Source of the DNA: Candidatus Zambryskibacteria bacterium RIFCSPLOWO2_12_FULL_39_16
Lineage (GTDB): Bacteria; Patescibacteriota; Minisyncoccia; Phycocordibacterales; WO2-35-19
Direction of reading: 5' to 3'
NCBI GenBank assembly: GCA_001824215.1
Contig: MHWS01000003.1
Location: 1 to 41,561 of the forward strand
Length of the DNA: 41,561 nucleotides
The stretch's first letter is position 1. The number at the start of each line of letters is the position of its first letter. Positions 3,194 through 35,165 of the stretch are shown in pieces. Both the position numbers and the translations under genes were made by a program. A model generated the notes under the pieces. It did not search any database and was not told the origin of the DNA. It saw nothing but the letters and a program-made list of their open reading frames with translations.

Positions 3194-3567
3194 TTCAACC
3201 AAGATCAATAGTAAAAGTAGCCGATAATTCAGGAGCCAAAATAGGCCGAGTCTTTAAGGTATTGGGCAGTTCCAAAAAAAGATACGCTAGAATCGGCGAA
3301 TTGGTTATTTTTTCCGTTCAGAAAGCTGAACCTCGCAAAGAAATTAAGAAAAAAGCGGTACTTTTGGGTTTGGTAGTCCGCCAAAAAGCACCGCTTAAAA
3401 GAAAGGATGGTTCCTATATCCGTTTTGATGAAAATGCGGTTATTGTGGTGGAGCAAAAAAAGGGTGAGATCTTGCCTAAAGCCGGCAGAATATTTGGTCC
3501 TATTCCAAGAGAAATCGCCGAAGCCGGACATCAGGCAATCGTTTCCTTGGCACCCGAAATAATATAA
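3190..3567 (+). CDS. rplN: 50S ribosomal protein L14
   Basis: MIQ, VADNSGA, RFDENA, RIFGPI, SLAPEI. Confidence 0.98.
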   Translation: MIQPRSIVKVADNSGAKIGRVFKVLGSSKKRYARIGELVIFSVQKAEPRKEIKKKAVLLGLVVRQKAPLKRKDGSYIRFDENAVIVVEQKKGEILPKAGRIFGPIPREIAEAGHQAIVSLAPEII

Positions 3568-3610
3568 CCTCACCCCCTCCCCCTCTCCTAGATACAGGAG
3601 AGGGGGAGGG
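3568..3610. repeat. CCTCACCCC-type REP-like palindrome
   Basis: CCTCAC leader plus perfect 15 bp stem CCCTCCCCCTCTCCT/AGGAGAGGGGGAGGG with a 6 nt loop. Sister copy inside uvrB. Confidence 0.85.
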
Positions 3611-14726: not shown

Positions 14727-15339
14727 AAATAAAGGTTTACCCAGCACCACTTTTGGCATTACAAAAAGTGGTGCTGGGTTTACCCTCATTGAGCTTATTG
14801 TTGTTATGGCTGTAGCTACGGCTGTAATGACTTCTGTCGTCATTCAGCAAAATGTATGGAACGACCGTCTAGCTGTAAACACCCAAGCCTATGAATTAGT
14901 TTTAATGATACGCCAAGCCCAGATTTATGCTTTAGGAGTGAGAGAAGATAAAGCTGGTACAGAAACTGATAAATTTAATATTGGTTATGGGGTTTATTTT
15001 GATACAGTCAATACGAGATATATATATTTTGCCGATAGAAACGGAAATCTAAGATATGATTCTGGAGAAGAAATAGGATCTCCCATAATATTTACCAGGG
15101 GTGTGACTATAAAAGACGTTTGTGGAAGTTCCATGTGTATTTACACAGGAGGCGGTTCTTTCCGACAAGCGAATATTTCTTTTTTTAGGCCGAATCCCGG
15201 AGCAATCATAAAACTTTTAAATAATGGAGGAGGAAATGCGACTAACCCGCCGGTTACTATCAGTTTGCAATCTGCTGGAGGCAAAGTTTATTCCGTAACA
15301 GTTCGGACCAACGGCCAGGTTTCTGTCATACAAATTTAA
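14704..15339 (+). CDS. Minor pilin (FimU/GspH-like)
   Basis: G/FTLIELIVVM, IRQAQ, YGVYF, C-terminal NGQV. Confidence 0.85.
   Translation: MKFSTHSKNKGLPSTTFGITKSGAGFTLIELIVVMAVATAVMTSVVIQQNVWNDRLAVNTQAYELVLMIRQAQIYALGVREDKAGTETDKFNIGYGVYFDTVNTRYIYFADRNGNLRYDSGEEIGSPIIFTRGVTIKDVCGSSMCIYTGGGSFRQANISFFRPNPGAIIKLLNNGGGNATNPPVTISLQSAGGKVYSVTVRTNGQVSVIQI
14734..14785. repeat. Palindromic insert in a pilin leader peptide
   Basis: Perfect 16 bp IR ACCCAGCACCACTTTT (14739-14754) / AAAAGTGGTGCTGGGT (14764-14779). GGTTTACCC direct repeat at both ends. Confidence 0.85.
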
Positions 15340-24493: not shown

Positions 24494-24530
24494 ATAGATT
24501 TTGAGGGATAGTGTGGTAGATTTAGCTATC

Positions 24531-26774
24531 ATGAAATTCAAGATTAAAAGCGGTTTTAAGCCGGCTGGCGACCAGCCGCAAGCAATAGAAAAGCTGGTGG
24601 AAGGCTTAAAAAAAGGTTTGCGTCACCAGACCCTTTTGGGTGTAACTGGCTCAGGTAAGACATTTACAGTAGCAAATGTTATAAATGAAATCCAAAAACC
24701 GACTCTTGTTATCGCTCACAACAAAACTCTGGCTGCTCAGTTGGCTCAGGAATACAGAGAGTTTTTTCCTGAGAACGCTGTGCATTATTTTGTTTCTTAC
24801 TACGACTATTATCAACCGGAAGCATATATGCCGATTTCTGACACTTATATAGAGAAAGAGGCAATGATAAACGAAGAAATAGATCGGTTACGCCATGCTT
24901 CTACCCAAGCCCTTCTGACACGTAAGGATGTTATTATTGTGGCCTCGGTTTCCTGTATTTATGGATTAGGTTCTCCGATAGAATATGAAAAAGTGAATCT
25001 GAAAATTGTAAAAGGAGATAAAATATCTCGGACAGAATTTGTTCGCAGCTTAATTGGTATACATTTTGAACGTACTACCGCAGACCTTTCTTCTGGCCAA
25101 TTTAGGGCGGTCGGCAACACAGTGGAAATAATGCCAGTGTCTGAAAAAGTAATTTACAGAATTGAAATCGATGACGGAATAATAAAAGATATTTTAAAAA
25201 TAGACGCTATTACACGGACCATTTTGGAAAAAATAGAAGCTTTTTTCCTTTTCCCGGCAAAACATTTCATATCCACCAAAGAACAAAATGAAAGAGCTTT
25301 TAAAACAATCAAAACCGAACTGGCGGAGCGCTTAAAACAGCTTGAAAAAGAAGGAAAGCTTTTGGAAGCAGAACGTCTGAAACGTCGCACCAGTTATGAC
25401 TTGGCTCTTATCCGAGAAATGGGCTATTGCAACGGCATTGAAAATTACTCACGCCATTTCTCCGGCAAAAAATCAGGTGAAGCTCCCGATACCTTACTTT
25501 CGTATTTTTCTTCACCGGAAATCAGGGAAAAATTTAGTCCGCTTCACCCTGTCCGCACCAGCGGACGGGACCCTCACGGATCTAAATTTTTCCCTGATTT
25601 CCTTACTATCATTGACGAATCTCACGTCACCGTGCCACAAATTGGTGCAATGTATTCGGGAGATGCATCACGCAAACAATCACTAGTTGATTATGGATTT
25701 CGTCTACCTTCAGCCAAAGATAACAGACCGTTAAAATTTAAGGAATTTGAAGAGAGGGTCGGGCAGGTGATTTATACAAGTGCCACACCGAGCAATTATG
25801 AAAAGGAGCACAGTGAGCAGATAGTGGAACAAGTGATACGACCGACGGGCTTAGTTGACCCGGAAGTTCTGGTGCGCTCAATTACAGAAAGAAAAACCTC
25901 ACCCCCAACCCCTCTCCTTGCAAAGGAGAGGGGAGAAAAAAATAGAATTCCTGAGAACTCGAAGAAACCTTCTCGAGAGCAACTTTCGGAGCGCGACTGG
26001 CACGAGAAGGAGGGGATTTTTCAGCAGAAAAATACCCCGTTTGCTCGAGAGAACGGTTTTTTGGGTTCTTATTCGGGACAAATCGCTGATTTTATTTCCG
26101 AAGCAGAAAAAAGTATAAAAAAAGGAGGCAGAGTTATTGCAACCACTCTTACCAAAAAAATGGCGGAGGATTTGAGCGAGTACTTGAAAGAAAAAGGGAT
26201 TAAAGCTGAGTATTTGCATAGCGGCATAAAAACAATTGAAAGGATTGAAATTTTGACTCGGCTAAGGAAAGGAGAATTCGATTGCATAGTCGGAGTAAAT
26301 CTCCTTCGGGAAGGTTTAGATTTACCGGAAGTGACACTTATAGGAATTTTGGATGCAGACAAAGAAGGCTTTTTGCGTTCGGATACCTCGCTTATCCAAA
26401 TCATCGGCCGAGCGGCCCGAAATGTGGACGGCAAAGTTATTTTGTATGCCGATGTTATGACAGGCTCAATGGAGAGAGCCATAGATGAGACAAATCGTCG
26501 CCGGGAAAAACAAATCATTTATAATAAAAAGCATAACATCACTCCTAAAACAATCATAAAGAAAATCCAGGATATCACCGACCAGTTGCAATCCAAACAC
26601 CAAAAAACAGTCAAGGAACTTTTAACTTTTGACATAAAGACCGAAAAAAATATCAAAGCTCTGATTAAATACAAAGAGAAGCAGCTGAATTCTGCAGCGA
26701 AAATATTGGATTTTGAAACAGCGGCTCTTTTGCGAGATGAGATAAAAGAATTGGAAAAAATAAGAAAAGAGTGA
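24531..26774 (+). CDS. uvrB: Excinuclease ABC subunit B, with in-frame structured inserts
   Basis: PAGDQP, GVTGSGKT, YYDYYQPEAY, DESH, NLLREGLDLPEV, IGRAARN, C-terminal UVR domain. Confidence 0.98.
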   Translation: MKFKIKSGFKPAGDQPQAIEKLVEGLKKGLRHQTLLGVTGSGKTFTVANVINEIQKPTLVIAHNKTLAAQLAQEYREFFPENAVHYFVSYYDYYQPEAYMPISDTYIEKEAMINEEIDRLRHASTQALLTRKDVIIVASVSCIYGLGSPIEYEKVNLKIVKGDKISRTEFVRSLIGIHFERTTADLSSGQFRAVGNTVEIMPVSEKVIYRIEIDDGIIKDILKIDAITRTILEKIEAFFLFPAKHFISTKEQNERAFKTIKTELAERLKQLEKEGKLLEAERLKRRTSYDLALIREMGYCNGIENYSRHFSGKKSGEAPDTLLSYFSSPEIREKFSPLHPVRTSGRDPHGSKFFPDFLTIIDESHVTVPQIGAMYSGDASRKQSLVDYGFRLPSAKDNRPLKFKEFEERVGQVIYTSATPSNYEKEHSEQIVEQVIRPTGLVDPEVLVRSITERKTSPPTPLLAKERGEKNRIPENSKKPSREQLSERDWHEKEGIFQQKNTPFARENGFLGSYSGQIADFISEAEKSIKKGGRVIATTLTKKMAEDLSEYLKEKGIKAEYLHSGIKTIERIEILTRLRKGEFDCIVGVNLLREGLDLPEVTLIGILDADKEGFLRSDTSLIQIIGRAARNVDGKVILYADVMTGSMERAIDETNRRREKQIIYNKKHNITPKTIIKKIQDITDQLQSKHQKTVKELLTFDIKTEKNIKALIKYKEKQLNSAAKILDFETAALLRDEIKELEKIRKE
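25517..25602. repeat. 86 bp hairpin element in frame in uvrB
   Basis: Perfect 21 bp IR GGAAATCAGGGAAAAATTTAG / CTAAATTTTTCCCTGATTTCC, with inner GTCCGC-ACCA-GCGGAC. Confidence 0.9.
25897..25933. repeat. CCTCACCCC-type palindrome in frame in uvrB
   Basis: CCTCACCCCCAA-CCCCTCTCCTT-GCA-AAGGAGAGGGG. Same family as 3568-3610. Confidence 0.88.
25949..26078. repeat. About 130 bp nested hairpin element (AGCA loop) in frame in uvrB
   Basis: Imperfect IR of about 30 bp (GAGAACTCGAAGAAACC.. / ..GGTTTTTTGGGTTCTT), with inner ATTTTTC-AGCA-GAAAAAT. Confidence 0.8.
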
Positions 26775-29462: not shown

Positions 29463-30856
29463 AAAAAGAAGATATTAAGAAAGTAATATCAAAATTACCT
29501 GATACACCGGGGGTGTATAGATTCTTGCGTAAAAATAAGATTTTATATATAGGCAAAGCGACTTCGCTTAGAGATAGAGTCAGAAGTTATTTTAATGCTG
29601 GTATTGTAACTGTTCGTAGTCCTCTTATTTCCAAGATGCTTTCAAAATTTGACGATATTTCATTCCAGAAGACGGATTCGGTTTTGGAGGCTCTGGTTTT
29701 GGAAGCCAACTTAATCAAAAAATATCAGCCGACCGCCAATATAAAAGAAAAAGACAACCGCAGCTTTAATTATATCGTTATTACTAAAGAAGACTTTCCG
29801 AGAGTGCTTGTGATGAGAGAAAGGGAACTAGAGAAATTATTTGAGCTGTCTTCCCTCGAAAACCCTCGGAAGGAGCGACGGCGACGGACGGAGAAAATTT
29901 TTAGCAAAAAATTTTTGTGGTTTACGAGGGATGCGGTGAAAAATAATTTTGCTCAAGATGCCTCAAAGAATTTTTCAATTGCTCAAACATTCGGACCATT
30001 TCCAAACGGAAGCCAACTTAAAGAAGCAGTGAAAATTGTCCGTAAAATGTTCCCATTTAGAGATAAATGTTTGCCATTGCAAGGTAGGCCTTGTTTTAAC
30101 CGTCAAATCGGGCTTTGCCCGGGTGTTTGCACTGGTGAGATAGACAAAGAAGATTATGCCAAAATCATCAAAAATATAGTTTTATTTTTTGAAGGCAATA
30201 AGAAAAAACTGATAAAAAATTTGGAAAAACAGATGAAAGATTTTGCTAAAACTAGAGAATTTGAAAAAGCTCAAAAAATAAAAAAGACAATTTTTACTTT
30301 AAACCACATTCAAGATATTTCTTTACTAAAGATAGATCCGGTAGTAGATTTTGGCATCGCACTTCGTGCAGGGGCGAAGCCTAATGCCAAAATTCACTAC
30401 CGGATAGAAAGTTATGATATTGCTCATTTTTCCGGTACAAATGTGGCAGGAGTGATGATTGTAATTGAAAATGGAGAAGTTAAAAAATCTGATTACCGCA
30501 AATTTAAAATTAAAAATCACGGAATAAACGATACCAAAGCTCTTTCCGAAATTTTATCCCGTCGGCTGGCGCATTTAGAGTGGCCGAAACCAGACCTTAT
30601 CGTCGTTGACGGGGGAGCGGCTCAAAGACGGGTTATGGAAAAAGTTTTAAAAGAAAATGGAATCGATATTCCGACTGTCTCTGTTGTCAAAGATGTAAGG
30701 CATAGGCCAAAAGAAATTTTGGGTACCGCTTCGCTTAAGCTTCGCGGCACAAGCATGAATTATTCTGAACTTGAATCCTTGATACTCCTTGCCAACGCTG
30801 AGGCTCATAGATTTGCTATCGGTTTTCACAAACAACTTCGCAGAAAGTTGCCATAA
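29459..30856 (+). CDS. uvrC: Excinuclease ABC subunit C (no C-terminal HhH), with in-frame structured inserts
   Basis: LPDTPGVY..LYIGKATSLRDRVRSYF GIY-YIG domain, FGPF, IESYDIAH, PDLIVVDGG, EAHRFAI. Confidence 0.96.
   Translation: MKKEDIKKVISKLPDTPGVYRFLRKNKILYIGKATSLRDRVRSYFNAGIVTVRSPLISKMLSKFDDISFQKTDSVLEALVLEANLIKKYQPTANIKEKDNRSFNYIVITKEDFPRVLVMRERELEKLFELSSLENPRKERRRRTEKIFSKKFLWFTRDAVKNNFAQDASKNFSIAQTFGPFPNGSQLKEAVKIVRKMFPFRDKCLPLQGRPCFNRQIGLCPGVCTGEIDKEDYAKIIKNIVLFFEGNKKKLIKNLEKQMKDFAKTREFEKAQKIKKTIFTLNHIQDISLLKIDPVVDFGIALRAGAKPNAKIHYRIESYDIAHFSGTNVAGVMIVIENGEVKKSDYRKFKIKNHGINDTKALSEILSRRLAHLEWPKPDLIVVDGGAAQRRVMEKVLKENGIDIPTVSVVKDVRHRPKEILGTASLKLRGTSMNYSELESLILLANAEAHRFAIGFHKQLRRKLP
29831..29976. 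repeat. About 146 bp nested hairpin element (AGCA loop) in frame in uvrC
   Basis: Outer IR GAGAAATTATTTGAGCTGTCTT / AAGATGCCTCAAAGAATTTTTC, middle CCCTCGAAAACC / GGTTTACGAGGG, inner AAAATTTTT-AGCA-AAAAATTTT. Confidence 0.8.
30336..30405. repeat. 70 bp Y-shaped palindrome in frame in uvrC
   Basis: 22 bp IR (20/22) ATCCGGTAGTAGATTTTGGCAT / ATGCCAAAATTCACTACCGGAT enclosing GCAC-TTC-GTGC and GGC-GAA-GCC. Confidence 0.9.
30723..30750. repeat. CTTCGC..GCTTCG family element in frame in uvrC
   Basis: CCGC-TTC-GCTTAAGC-TTC-GCGG, translated as ASLKLRG. Confidence 0.7.
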
Positions 30857-35057: not shown

Positions 35058-35165
35058 ATGAATCCCGTTAAAGTTTTACATATATGTAAGGTGGTAATAG
35101 CGTTATTGTGCAGATAATCATATTATTTAGTTTAATTAATCAATCAAAAACTCTAACGGGATGAA
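35058..35165. mobile_element. MITE-like element with CCCGTTA/TAACGGG ends at the pyrG start codon
   Basis: IR ATCCCGTTAAAGTTTT (35062-35077) / AAAACTCTAACGGGAT (35147-35162), 15/16 match. ATGAA direct repeat at both ends. Confidence 0.7.

Follow-up and report, generated by a model that had tools for sequence, protein, structure and literature searches.

The uvrB gene of Candidatus Zambryskibacteria bacterium RIFCSPLOWO2_12_FULL_39_16, an ultra-small groundwater bacterium, contains an in-frame GC-rich hairpin repeat inside a dispensable loop, and this hairpin is a composite in which the inner 66 nt come from a dispersed repeat and the outer 10 bp are specific to the site. The loop, a variable and lineage-specific one on the surface of UvrB, lies just ahead of helicase motif II; between its Glu and Pro codons there is an in-frame piece, 63-66 nt long, of a small palindromic repeat that is non-autonomous. 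On balance, the hairpin is probably an element akin to Rickettsia palindromic elements (RPEs) and MITEs whose stem was lengthened by intrastrand template switching, with the constrained arm serving as the template. The features discussed below are numbered according to the window, that is, the whole analysed stretch of 41,561 nt of contig MHWS01000003.1:

14739..14779, + strand: pilin-leader hairpin with 16-bp perfect arms and a 9-nt loop, inside a 42-nt in-frame segment that is extra relative to G007
24501..26774, + strand: uvrB reading frame, 757 aa as listed, with two in-frame inserts
24531, + strand: ATG, the likely start of uvrB (MKFKIK)
25509..25526, + strand: rewritten host loop codons SSPEIR at the place of the relatives' PHKENG, the final 10 nt being the left outer arm
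25517..25526, + strand: left outer arm GGAAATCAGG, exact reverse complement of the native PDF codons, private to the uvrB site
25527..25592, + strand: family-1 shared segment of 66 nt, inner arms GAAAAATTTAG / CTAAATTTTTC and GC-rich core
25548..25569, + strand: inner GC-rich 9-bp hairpin of the core, region CCCTGTCCGC ACCA GCGGACGGG, from folding
25593..25602, + strand: right outer arm CCTGATTTCC, native Pro-Asp-Phe(+C) codons immediately before LTIIDESH (helicase motif II)
25893..26063, + strand: second in-frame insert of uvrB, ~57 aa, holding a copy of another dispersed palindromic repeat (25895-25933)
30336..30405, + strand: uvrC hairpin, a singleton in the genome, with outer 8 bp ATCCGGTA / TACCGGAT on native codon positions (D-P-V, Y-R-I)

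The uvrB frame is uninterrupted and encloses both arms of the hairpin, located at 25517-25537 (GGAAATCAGGGAAAAATTTAG) and 25582-25602 (CTAAATTTTTCCCTGATTTCC), which are 21 nt each, 100% complementary and separated by a 44-nt GC-rich spacer, so that the perfect 21-bp inverted repeat reported in the initial annotation stands. The 110-nt stretch has a folding energy of -55 kcal/mol (z -11.8) as RNA and of -34.2 kcal/mol (z -11.7) as DNA, and in neither case was any of 200 shuffles as stable. Perfect inverted repeats with 15-130-nt loops are also abundant genome-wide, with 6 of at least 20 bp and 25 of at least 14 bp observed against 0.0 and 0.4, respectively, in five first-order shuffles.

The inner part of the hairpin belongs to a dispersed repeat, here family 1, for which nhmmer finds four close copies and one diverged copy in the 0.54-Mb genome (G000). 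Core matches are found at C1, C8 and C18 (E 1e-14 to 1e-15) and a diverged one at C13, and the uvrB copy is 92.4% identical to C1:19553-19618 over 66 nt. In full family-1 copies, which measure ~88 nt, inverted ends of 20-22 bp enclose a GC-rich core, and there is an inner 9-bp hairpin. The copies at C1, at C18 and on the metagenome contig L027, which sit at unrelated places, share terminal inverted repeats of 20-22 bp and also the outer arm AAAAACAAACT. The uvrB and C8 copies have only the inner 10-11 bp in common with the other copies and carry private 10-bp outer arms, the total uvrB stem of 21 bp nevertheless equalling the length in the full copies. The initial annotation had held that arms recurring identically at unrelated sites would be ordinary element ends; this proves to be so for the inner half of the uvrB arms but not for the outer half. 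A search for the core, with at most three mismatches, in 201 order-sampled genomes and 39 genomes of the family matched G000 only; it was not found in 239 relatives. A metagenome scan with the core returned six contigs, five of them from near-identical strains (the C8, C1 and C18 loci) and one a new copy on a foreign contig, with no uvrB allele among the six. No direct target-site duplication is seen at the flanks of the five family-1 copies, and the uvrB flanks are inverted, not direct. Rfam yields only tRNAs at gathering score in the whole window and only chance-level matches in 25400-26200.

The outer 10 bp can be traced to the host gene. In the gene frame the right arm translates as (S)KFFPDF, in agreement with the earlier reading of KFFPDF ahead of DESH, and within this peptide only PDF is native, the KFF codons being part of the repeat. 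All 19 relatives have DF at their uvrB loci and 14 of them have PDF, the nucleotides of the relatives at this place being CCN GAY TTY, and the distance from the PDF codons to LTIIDESH is exactly the native one across all 19. The single YFP-x-DF of solved UvrB structures is matched twice here, by the native LLSYF and by the right-arm FFPDF. Where relatives have a variable loop of 7 residues (PHKENGE), this gene has the left outer arm. The gap between LLSYF and PDF amounts to 7 codons in relatives and to 7 codons plus 63 nt here, and therefore the left arm substituted for sequence and added none. Positions 25517-25526 are the reverse complement of 25593-25602, and both are contiguous with the 11-bp element arms. 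The left arm had been described in the initial annotation as the reverse complement of native codons throughout; that description is valid for the private outer 10 nt, whereas the inner 11 bp are the inverted ends of the repeat, common with the C1 copy. In the AlphaFold model of UvrB, residues 347-364 have pLDDT values below 50, and the LTIID strand behind them is modelled.

If the full 21-bp arm had instead been brought in by an element variant and its match to PDF were coincidental, the arms would be ordinary terminal inverted repeats, as the inner 11 bp truly are and as the long inverted ends of such elements might suggest. Against this, the GGAAATCAGG/CCTGATTTCC arms occur in no other copy, neither elsewhere in the genome nor in the six metagenome matches, and the PDF at native distance in all 19 relatives would demand a precise deletion of the native PDF; the explanation is close to refuted and hardly credible. 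Two other matches to the arms were rejected as copies: the 18-nt match at C10:14624 is the N-terminus of AlaRS (EIRQKF), while that of 13 nt at C14:5334 is no better than chance.

Since the similarity to other family-1 copies ends exactly at 25527 and 25592 and the chance of ten complementary flanking bases is ~1e-6, templated synthesis, by fold-back or template switching, would be the simplest source of the left outer arm. The process favoured here corresponds to the Ripley/Lovett model of quasi-palindrome template-switch mutation, in which a stem is made or perfected in one event. The 11-bp inverted ends of the repeat would allow the nascent DNA strand to fold back, and the polymerase, copying beyond the old end of the stem, would write the reverse complement of the Pro-Asp-Phe codons over 10 nt of the tolerant loop. 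Selection would set which copying direction survived, because changes are barred on the PDF/DESH side and allowed on the loop side. The resulting insert would be expressed with the gene, through transcription and translation, and give the protein an additional loop of net 21 residues. The template-switch idea of the initial annotation is thus partly upheld, in that the outer 10 nt are an inverted host copy, but the whole 21-bp arm is not host-derived. Template switching is an established mechanism: it gives rise to reverse-complement repeats and fixes stems (PMC8794818), and in coding DNA it homogenises the arms of inverted repeats, so that several adjacent amino acids change (PMC8604942).

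Under such later template switching, the pre-event allele would have had the repeat with unpaired outer flanks, for example a left flank ...GAAAATGGGGAA. This flank is taken from genus-level sequences because the nearest relatives are only ~80% identical in protein; outside the 90% cluster the nearest UvrB is 78-79% identical in the region, and no conspecific or close empty or intermediate uvrB allele was found, every conspecific sequence being in the final state already. The last 12 nt of the rewritten loop are identical at 9 of 12 positions to GAA AAT GGG GAA of G003, an A/G-rich stretch. Upstream of the left arm a further 8 nt (TCTTCACC) depart from the conserved CCN CAY AA of relatives, a change that template switching leaves unexplained.

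Another process would build the stem during insertion itself. Here only the core and ~10-bp inner arms would be mobile, and integration, at the apex of a quasi-palindromic target or on single-stranded DNA, would involve fold-back priming that copies ~10 nt of the target in inverted form, perhaps with the single HUH/Y1 transposase-like protein as the enzyme; this is a rather unlikely alternative. The lengths of the arms bear on the question. Given that the uvrB stem equals that of the full copies, that C8 likewise has a private outer 10 bp and that the copy-specific arms of a second family all measure 12-15 bp, the uniform stem and private-arm lengths are easier to reconcile with an insertion-coupled mechanism, or with selection on the length of the stem, than with haphazard extension at a later time. 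The two of five family-1 copies with private outer arms, uvrB and C8, have them of equal length, 10 bp. In G003 and G007, whose uvrB alleles are empty, a quasi-palindrome already surrounds the insertion point, AAAGAAAATGG and CCAGATTTTTT being complementary at 8 of 11 positions. In mnmA, where native Lys-Ile codons lie in the left arm and their complement forms the right arm, the inverted copy of these codons falls within the 63 inserted nt. Different inserts are present at the same sites of uvrB and ksgA in sister species, and the polA copies at one site occupy different frames. A candidate enzyme is present too, in the form of the one Y1_Tnp protein encoded by the genome.

Several observations stand against building the stem during insertion. 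The outer arm of the C1, C18 and L027 copies travels with the element; the inverted copies in uvrB and uvrC replace native codons with zero added length; and the tuf-rpsJ spacer, which in G000 holds a family-2 copy with private arms of 15 bp, has no hairpin in G013 and G003. That intergenic copies had targeted pre-existing terminator hairpins was considered and rejected, the orthologous G013 and G003 spacers showing none with matching arms. Four transposase-related families were searched in G000 (94.6% complete); DDE_Tnp_1, rve and RVT_1 were not found, and the only transposase-like gene is of the HUH/Y1 type (RAYT-like). This one gene scores 38.8 bits for Pfam Y1_Tnp against a cut-off of 23 and encodes the HUH-like motifs NHFHLL and YIHKNP, but its protein reaches only 35.9 bits for NCBIfam REP_Tyr_transpos (RAYT), below the cut-off of 80, and there is no family-1 or family-2 match on its contig, C22. 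The only palindrome adjoining the gene is restricted to that single C22 locus. A specific form of the process, in which a single-stranded hairpin element is joined at one end and the other end primes fold-back synthesis along the target, possibly by the lone HUH/Y1 protein, would leave an inverted target-site duplication of ~10-15 bp and would account for the uniform length of the copy-specific arms; it is an unlikely origin of the outer stem, and if the stem were indeed built during insertion, this would amount to a new integration chemistry and an undescribed signature of transposition.

Template switching, the preferred explanation, can be set beside hairpins in other genes, since a conserved core, copy-specific paired outer arms and compensated block changes between orthologues recur within the genus in uvrC, mnmA, smc, polA and ksgA. 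In uvrC the right arm ends TAC CGG AT, that is, in the Y-R-I of the native F/Y-R-I-E, as the initial annotation had noted of the arm reaching the RI of RIE. Relatives have D-D-V ... F-R-I where D-P-V ... Y-R-I is found here, the essential Arg codon being unchanged and the linker codon rewritten as its complement; relatives also retain remnants GTGTCAAGG..CCTTGACAC with the interior lost. The GATAGA direct repeat at 30331 and 30403 was rejected as a target-site duplication because relatives have the native linker and R-I-E there. The smc copies of G000 and G013 differ at four clustered ones of the 13 arm positions (GACGG vs AGCAA), four compensated and none uncompensated. Orthologous mnmA copies have ATT/AAT in one genome swapped for AAT/ATT in G013 on both arms, and the element is ~94% identical between G000 and G013 with neighbouring codons unalignable. 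For polA, G013 and the C13 copy of G000 show two compensated differences and one uncompensated. In ksgA, cores and inner arms are almost the same in G002 as in G007, yet the 10-bp outer arms are unrelated, each still being paired, and three uncompensated changes occur in G011 and two in G001; any homogenisation of the arms is therefore episodic.

Paired changes of this kind could also be produced if the hairpin itself were functional and under selection (for mRNA stability, pausing, protein binding or mobility of the element), with point mutations and compensatory ones giving the pairing. The compensated differences between orthologues, the very stable fold and cores far more conserved than the flanking genes, as in mnmA, are in keeping with this. 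All ten outer pairs in uvrB are, however, Watson-Crick with no G-U; the smc and ksgA (G002) changes are contiguous blocks, which suggests single events; uncompensated mismatches are tolerated in several orthologues and the interior is lost in others, as in the uvrC remnants; the hairpin matches no Rfam family; and the benefit to the host of a -55 kcal/mol hairpin within a repair gene is hard to see. Such selection is an improbable source of the pairing.

The genic copies of the three families in G000, namely family 1 in uvrB, family 2 in RseP, SMC, RNase R, PolA (two) and MnmA, and family 3 in KsgA, are open and in the host frame in eight of eight cases, and Pfam domains span or flank the insert in seven of the eight, uvrB counted. 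The excision or ribosome bypass proposed in the initial annotation finds no support. A removable insert would be excised as a hairpin from DNA or RNA or skipped by the ribosome, leaving a mature UvrB that lacks it, and a strong hairpin bounded by sequence that repeats the native YFP-DF context might invite such a reading. It is nonetheless very improbable, as the net length is divisible by three in uvrB and in the seven other genic copies, a filter that would be needless if inserts were removed. The frame of the uvrB insert is open, with no stop codon and no take-off/landing pair found. The insert is carried by all six full-length near-identical UvrB proteins on record (cluster members). Contigs from three of four read runs bridge the insert without any difference, run X12 having none that bridges 25482-25591 among the contigs listed, and no assembly joint skipping the insert was seen in the four; the 20 listed read runs are all DNA or of type unknown. 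A 10-nt direct repeat close by, at 25492 and 25601, consists of native sequence; with a spacing of 109 nt it would not preserve the frame.

Among the closest known systems, RPEs are likewise short palindromic repeats in a reduced genome, with many in-frame copies in unrelated housekeeping genes translated as additional peptide segments at tolerant places (PMC10969869). The likeness is one of description; the host phylum is unrelated, the elements here measure 66-88 nt against ~150 bp for RPEs, and here the centre is conserved and the outer stem copy-specific and partly made of host codons. Quasi-palindrome template-switch mutations likewise lengthen or perfect a stem by a one-event reverse-complement copy of neighbouring sequence (PMC8794818, PMC8604942, PMC7202029). 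They also give clustered multi-nucleotide, multi-residue coding changes and apparent compensatory changes. In uvrB, in contrast, the priming inverted repeat came from a mobile repeat that landed in a gene, the template arm is an essential motif, and the event itself is deduced. REPINs are non-autonomous hairpin repeats of ~70-100 nt with compensatory changes along the hairpin (PMC3116915). The single-copy Y1 transposase-like gene of G000 is a further likeness to REP-RAYT systems. REPINs, though, are extragenic elements flanking their RAYT gene, with a variable spacer between two highly conserved ends. Here it is the centre that is conserved while the ends vary, eight copies are intragenic, the Y1 gene has no copy nearby and its protein falls short of the RAYT cut-off. 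Bacterial MITEs (Correia, ERIC, Nezha) are similarly small and multi-copy, have terminal inverted repeats and no coding gene, and include copies beside stop or start codons or in frame within genes. Family 1 differs from them in having no target-site duplication seen, no parent insertion sequence found and ends less conserved than the centre. Finally, the coding palindromes of Nematomorpha mitochondria are inverted repeats, long and perfect, that lie within protein-coding sequence and have both arms translated (PMC6649704), but they are organellar and are not dispersed repeats with a shared core. A literature search aimed at CPR taxa found no paper on such elements in these bacteria.

Should the preferred explanation hold, a selfish hairpin repeat and a replication error would jointly have rewritten several neighbouring codons near an essential motif in one step, with purifying selection picking the template arm, which suggests a route by which proteins of ultra-small (CPR) bacteria gain many lineage-specific loops. 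It would also follow that perfect 'compensatory' stems within genes need not mean functional RNA.

Some smaller observations concern the other hairpins. The right arm of the 16-bp pilin hairpin ends GGG T, the G and F of GFTLIE, which bears out the earlier remark that this arm reaches the GF codons. A 9-nt direct repeat there, GGTTTACCC (14734 and 14777), was withdrawn as a target-site duplication because its spacing of 43 nt does not make a clean duplication with the 42-nt insert relative to G007. A degenerate family-2 pattern matched two of its own copies and one in G018, and was too narrow to inform on the distribution of that family. In G013, one free-standing AAAAACAAA...TTTGTTTTT hairpin is present.

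The two arms of the uvrB inverted repeat are 100% complementary over 21 nt and lie 44 nt apart within a continuous reading frame, which bears out the initial annotation. Folding of 110 nt around the repeat gives one long hairpin both as RNA (-55 kcal/mol, z -11.8) and as DNA (-34.2 kcal/mol, z -11.7), with a stability matched by none of 200 shuffles; from the outside inwards it consists of the 21-bp stem, a bulge and four pairs, a C-rich internal loop and an inner 9-bp GC hairpin. The inverted repeat is non-random, since counts in the 539-kb genome (26 contigs, G+C about 39%, the window being its contig C3) lie far above first-order shuffles: six perfect inverted repeats of at least 20 bp with loops of 15-130 nt were observed versus 0.0 in five shuffles, and 25 of at least 14 bp versus 0.4. 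The excess in the related genome G013 is similar (19 versus 1.4) and that in G003 smaller (6 versus 0.6). By the source names attached to its UvrB relatives, the genome belongs with Patescibacteria/Paceibacteria-type bacteria.

Features of the uvrB locus and copies of its repeat (C1, C8, C13 and C18 are other contigs of the genome)
24501-26774: uvrB reading frame, enclosing the inverted repeat
25517-25537 and 25582-25602: arms of the uvrB inverted repeat
25548-25569: inner 9-bp GC hairpin
25893-26063: second in-frame uvrB insert, about 57 aa (repeat unit 25895-25933)
C1:19542-19629, C8:1373-1456 and C18:10183-10270: close copies, profile search
C13:29282-29370: diverged copy, profile search

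By profile search of the genome, the GC-rich centre of the hairpin is a dispersed repeat (family 1) with close copies at uvrB and on three further contigs. At up to three mismatches its core was absent elsewhere among 201 order-sampled and 39 family genomes (16 of the same genus), and a metagenome scan returned six contigs, five of which come from near-identical strains and represent the C8, C1 and C18 loci, the sixth being a previously unseen copy. In a core-anchored alignment, the C1, C18 and new-contig copies have 20-22-bp ends in common (AAAAACAAACTG..AAATTT), in which two or three positions differ in a paired manner. The similarity between the uvrB and C1 copies is limited to 25527-25592 (66 nt, 92.4% identity), with zero bases beyond, so the 21-bp arm is bipartite: its inner 11 bp are the element's own end and its outer 10 bp are private to the site; the C8 copy likewise has 10 inner bp common to the family and 10 private outer ones. 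The reading of the arms as ordinary terminal repeats recurring at unrelated sites consequently holds for the inner 11 bp and fails for the outer 10 bp, which are found at no other place.

The outer arms were compared with 19 uvrB loci of relatives, 16 of which encode LLSYF, a 7-residue loop (PHKENGE, PHKSDGS, PKDKDGN and similar) and (P)DFLT(I/V)IDESH, with DF present in all 19 and PDF in 14. The protein studied here reads LLSYF-SSPEIRE, then 21 residues, then PDFLTIIDESH. On the right, the outer arm CCTGATTTCC consists of the gene's native Pro-Asp-Phe codons (CCN GAY TTY in relatives); on the left, at the position of the relatives' loop codons, the outer arm GGAAATCAGG is an exact reverse complement of them. 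A dispersed palindromic repeat is placed in frame within a variable loop of UvrB, its stem running 10 bp into native essential codons with their exact complement on the other side. Seven codons precede the repeat, as in relatives, followed by 63 inserted nt, and the final four loop codons (GAA ATC AGG GAA) match those of G003 (GAA AAT GGG GAA) at 9 of 12 positions, which suggests that the inverted copy replaced loop sequence without adding length. The left arm had been described as the reverse complement of native codons, which is exact for the outer 10 nt and does not extend to the inner 11, the element's own end. The right-arm KFFPDF was taken for a conserved motif because the single YFP-x-DF of solved UvrB structures finds two matches here, the native LLSYF and the right-arm FFPDF; the host-derived part of KFFPDF is PDF only.

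The insert residues have no counterpart in solved UvrB structures. In an AlphaFold model of moderate quality (39 sequences, mean pLDDT 69.7), residues 347-364 and the second insert (464-523) fall below pLDDT 50 and the LTIID strand after the first insert is modelled, which fits a floppy loop. Across the genus, the loop is a recurrent landing or tolerance spot. At the site equivalent to 25509, the uvrB genes of G015 and G009 (loci L002/L003) contain another GC-rich palindromic insert of 20 aa, RKTPPQPLPLLRGGARGEVV, and G008 has a 9-aa variant in the same loop.

The proposal that the hairpin is excised or bypassed by ribosomes was not sustained. The host frame is kept and stop-free in all eight genic copies of three families in the genome, with only one to four of six frames open per element; in seven of the eight the insert lies within or beside Pfam domains (uvrB counted via relatives and solved structures), the eighth being interrupted by a contig end. 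Within the 90% cluster, all six full-length UvrB sequences retain the insert unchanged; in three out of four further runs, contigs cross the hairpin without difference, and no joint skipping it was found in contigs of the four. Such a filter on frame and openness would be expected from translation and pointless under excision or bypass.

Other hairpins and related features of the genome
30336-30405 of the window: uvrC hairpin, single copy
C10:18433-18504: mnmA insert, orthologous to G013 C5:68981-69052
C7:9456-9569 (loci L071-L079): ksgA insert site, just before (Y)xLVGNIPYY
C22:43559-44227 (locus L048:1294-1962), minus strand: Y1_Tnp (HUH/Y1, RAYT-like) protein, 222 aa

A parallel is provided by uvrC, where the protein reads K-DDV-SRLNLDTK-F-RIESYD in relatives and K-I-DPV-...-HY-RIESYD here. 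The outer 8 bp of the arms, ATCCGGTA/TACCGGAT, fall on native codon positions, in agreement with the earlier claim of an arm over the RI of RIE; the invariant Arg codon is unchanged, a linker codon GAT has become CCG, the complement of that Arg codon, and Phe is replaced by Tyr. In relatives the linker itself forms a small hairpin, GTGTCAAGG..CCTTGACAC, which in G007 shows a paired change; it is similar to the ends of a further repeat found in G012 ksgA and in a G013 gene. The pilin leader (14731-14790) is 14 aa longer than in G007 (SKNKG/FTLLE), the extra 42 nt being essentially one perfect 16-bp hairpin, and missing from the G009 pilin are the 12 left-arm nt complementary to the Ser-Gly-Ala-Gly codons. 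A direct repeat of 9 nt there was rejected as a clean target duplication, its spacing being 43 nt versus 42 extra nt.

We infer that templated DNA synthesis most likely wrote the complement of the host codons. Inverted ends of 11 bp, belonging to the repeat itself, would permit the nascent strand to fold back, self-templated extension would copy the adjoining host codons as their reverse complement, and the strand would then rejoin its template, as in the quasi-palindrome template-switch mechanism; selection would fix the surviving direction, with the loop overwritten and PDF/DESH intact or, in uvrC, the Arg codon intact. This stem-writing step is an already known mutation: according to PMC8794818, template switching can make perfect stems in one event and repair existing ones, and PMC8604942 describes it in yeast coding DNA as homogenising inverted-repeat arms and altering up to five neighbouring residues. 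However, the 8 nt that precede the left arm also diverge from the Pro-His-Lys codons conserved in relatives, the total uvrB stem length equals that of full copies, and private arms show a strikingly uniform length in families 1 and 2, all of which fit template switching poorly and keep alive the rival that integration itself makes the inverted copy, with fold-back priming at a quasi-palindromic target. Around the insertion point, the empty uvrB alleles of G003 and G007 are already complementary at 8 of 11 positions; against synthesis at integration, outer arms are common to three copies at unrelated sites, and the inverted copies in uvrB and uvrC bring no extra length. The initial observation is confirmed, and its interpretation is partly supported.

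A second palindromic repeat, family 2 (core ..AAGTCCTCGGGTCGC..CTCAACCAGAC..), has at least nine copies, located in the genes for RseP, SMC, RNase R, PolA (two contigs) and MnmA and in intergenic sequence, with perfect or almost perfect outer stems of 12-15 bp that differ in each copy. In mnmA, the left arm includes native Lys-Ile codons (GCT CCA AAA ATT in relatives) and the right arm their complement, the left/right arms being ATT/AAT here and AAT/ATT in G013. The 13-bp smc arms differ between the two genomes by four clustered changes (GACGG versus AGCAA), all four compensated, and the polA arms of G013 and contig C13 by two compensated and one uncompensated. Across the genus, one ksgA site has received hairpin inserts of at least four unrelated kinds, with perfect stems of up to 24 bp (G012) and no insert in G016 and G008; G002 and G007 share core and inner arms there, and their 10-bp outer arms are unrelated yet paired. 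Uncompensated ksgA arm changes number three in G011 and two in G001. The arms therefore alter in paired blocks, without continuous policing.

Between this genome and G013, identity of the mnmA insert is about 94% amid unalignable coding sequence, and within each species the same triplet flanks both sides of the stem (TCC/TCC versus TAC/TAC). Two diverged polA fragments (C20:16044-17551 and C13:1-1500) cover the same gene part, are about 70% identical in protein over the stretch compared around the insert, and each carry, in differing frames, a family-2 insert at one shared linker site; the duplication may reflect a paralogue or another strain within the bin. The RseP insert (C14:1123-1208) has a decayed-looking version of the same length in G003, and G013 retains an apparent left part only, which suggests that old inserts decay or shed their interior.

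Among four transposase and reverse-transcriptase families searched in the genome (94.6% complete), Y1_Tnp was the only one present (38.8 bits, cut-off 23). The protein has HUH-like and YIHKNP motifs and scores 35.9 bits against the NCBIfam REP-associated tyrosine transposase model, below the cut-off of 80. Searches of the genome's contigs placed no family-1 or family-2 copy on its contig C22, and as mover of the repeat it is only a lead. The 3' end of its gene overlaps the end of gatB, and a palindrome 55 nt upstream, TTAAACGCTCAGCGTTTAA, is restricted to this locus. Closest in behaviour are the Rickettsia palindromic elements, palindromic repeats that lie in frame within the housekeeping genes of a reduced genome (PMC10969869). 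REPINs, in contrast, lie outside genes and combine conserved ends with a variable spacer (PMC3116915), and classical MITEs differ in that the uvrB-type element has no target duplication and no parent element was found. Literature searches directed at CPR taxa listed no paper on such elements in Patescibacteria.

A further inverted-repeat family has conserved ends ttcATCCCGTTAGA...TCTAACGGGATtca and AT-rich centres of 37-69 nt.

Members of the ttcATCCCGTTAGA...TCTAACGGGATtca family
35062-35162 of the window
C14:7796-7896
C10:11069-11135
C10:20485-20565

The second uvrB insert, missing from many relatives, contains the palindrome AACCTCACCCCCAACCCCTCTCCT..AGGAGAGGGG, with copies at 3566-3610 of the window, C15:8786, C13:28995, C5:41295 and on C25; matches in relatives occur on both strands and also within other genes. 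Summed contig depth at this insert is 23-55 in three of four runs versus about 3-5 nearby.
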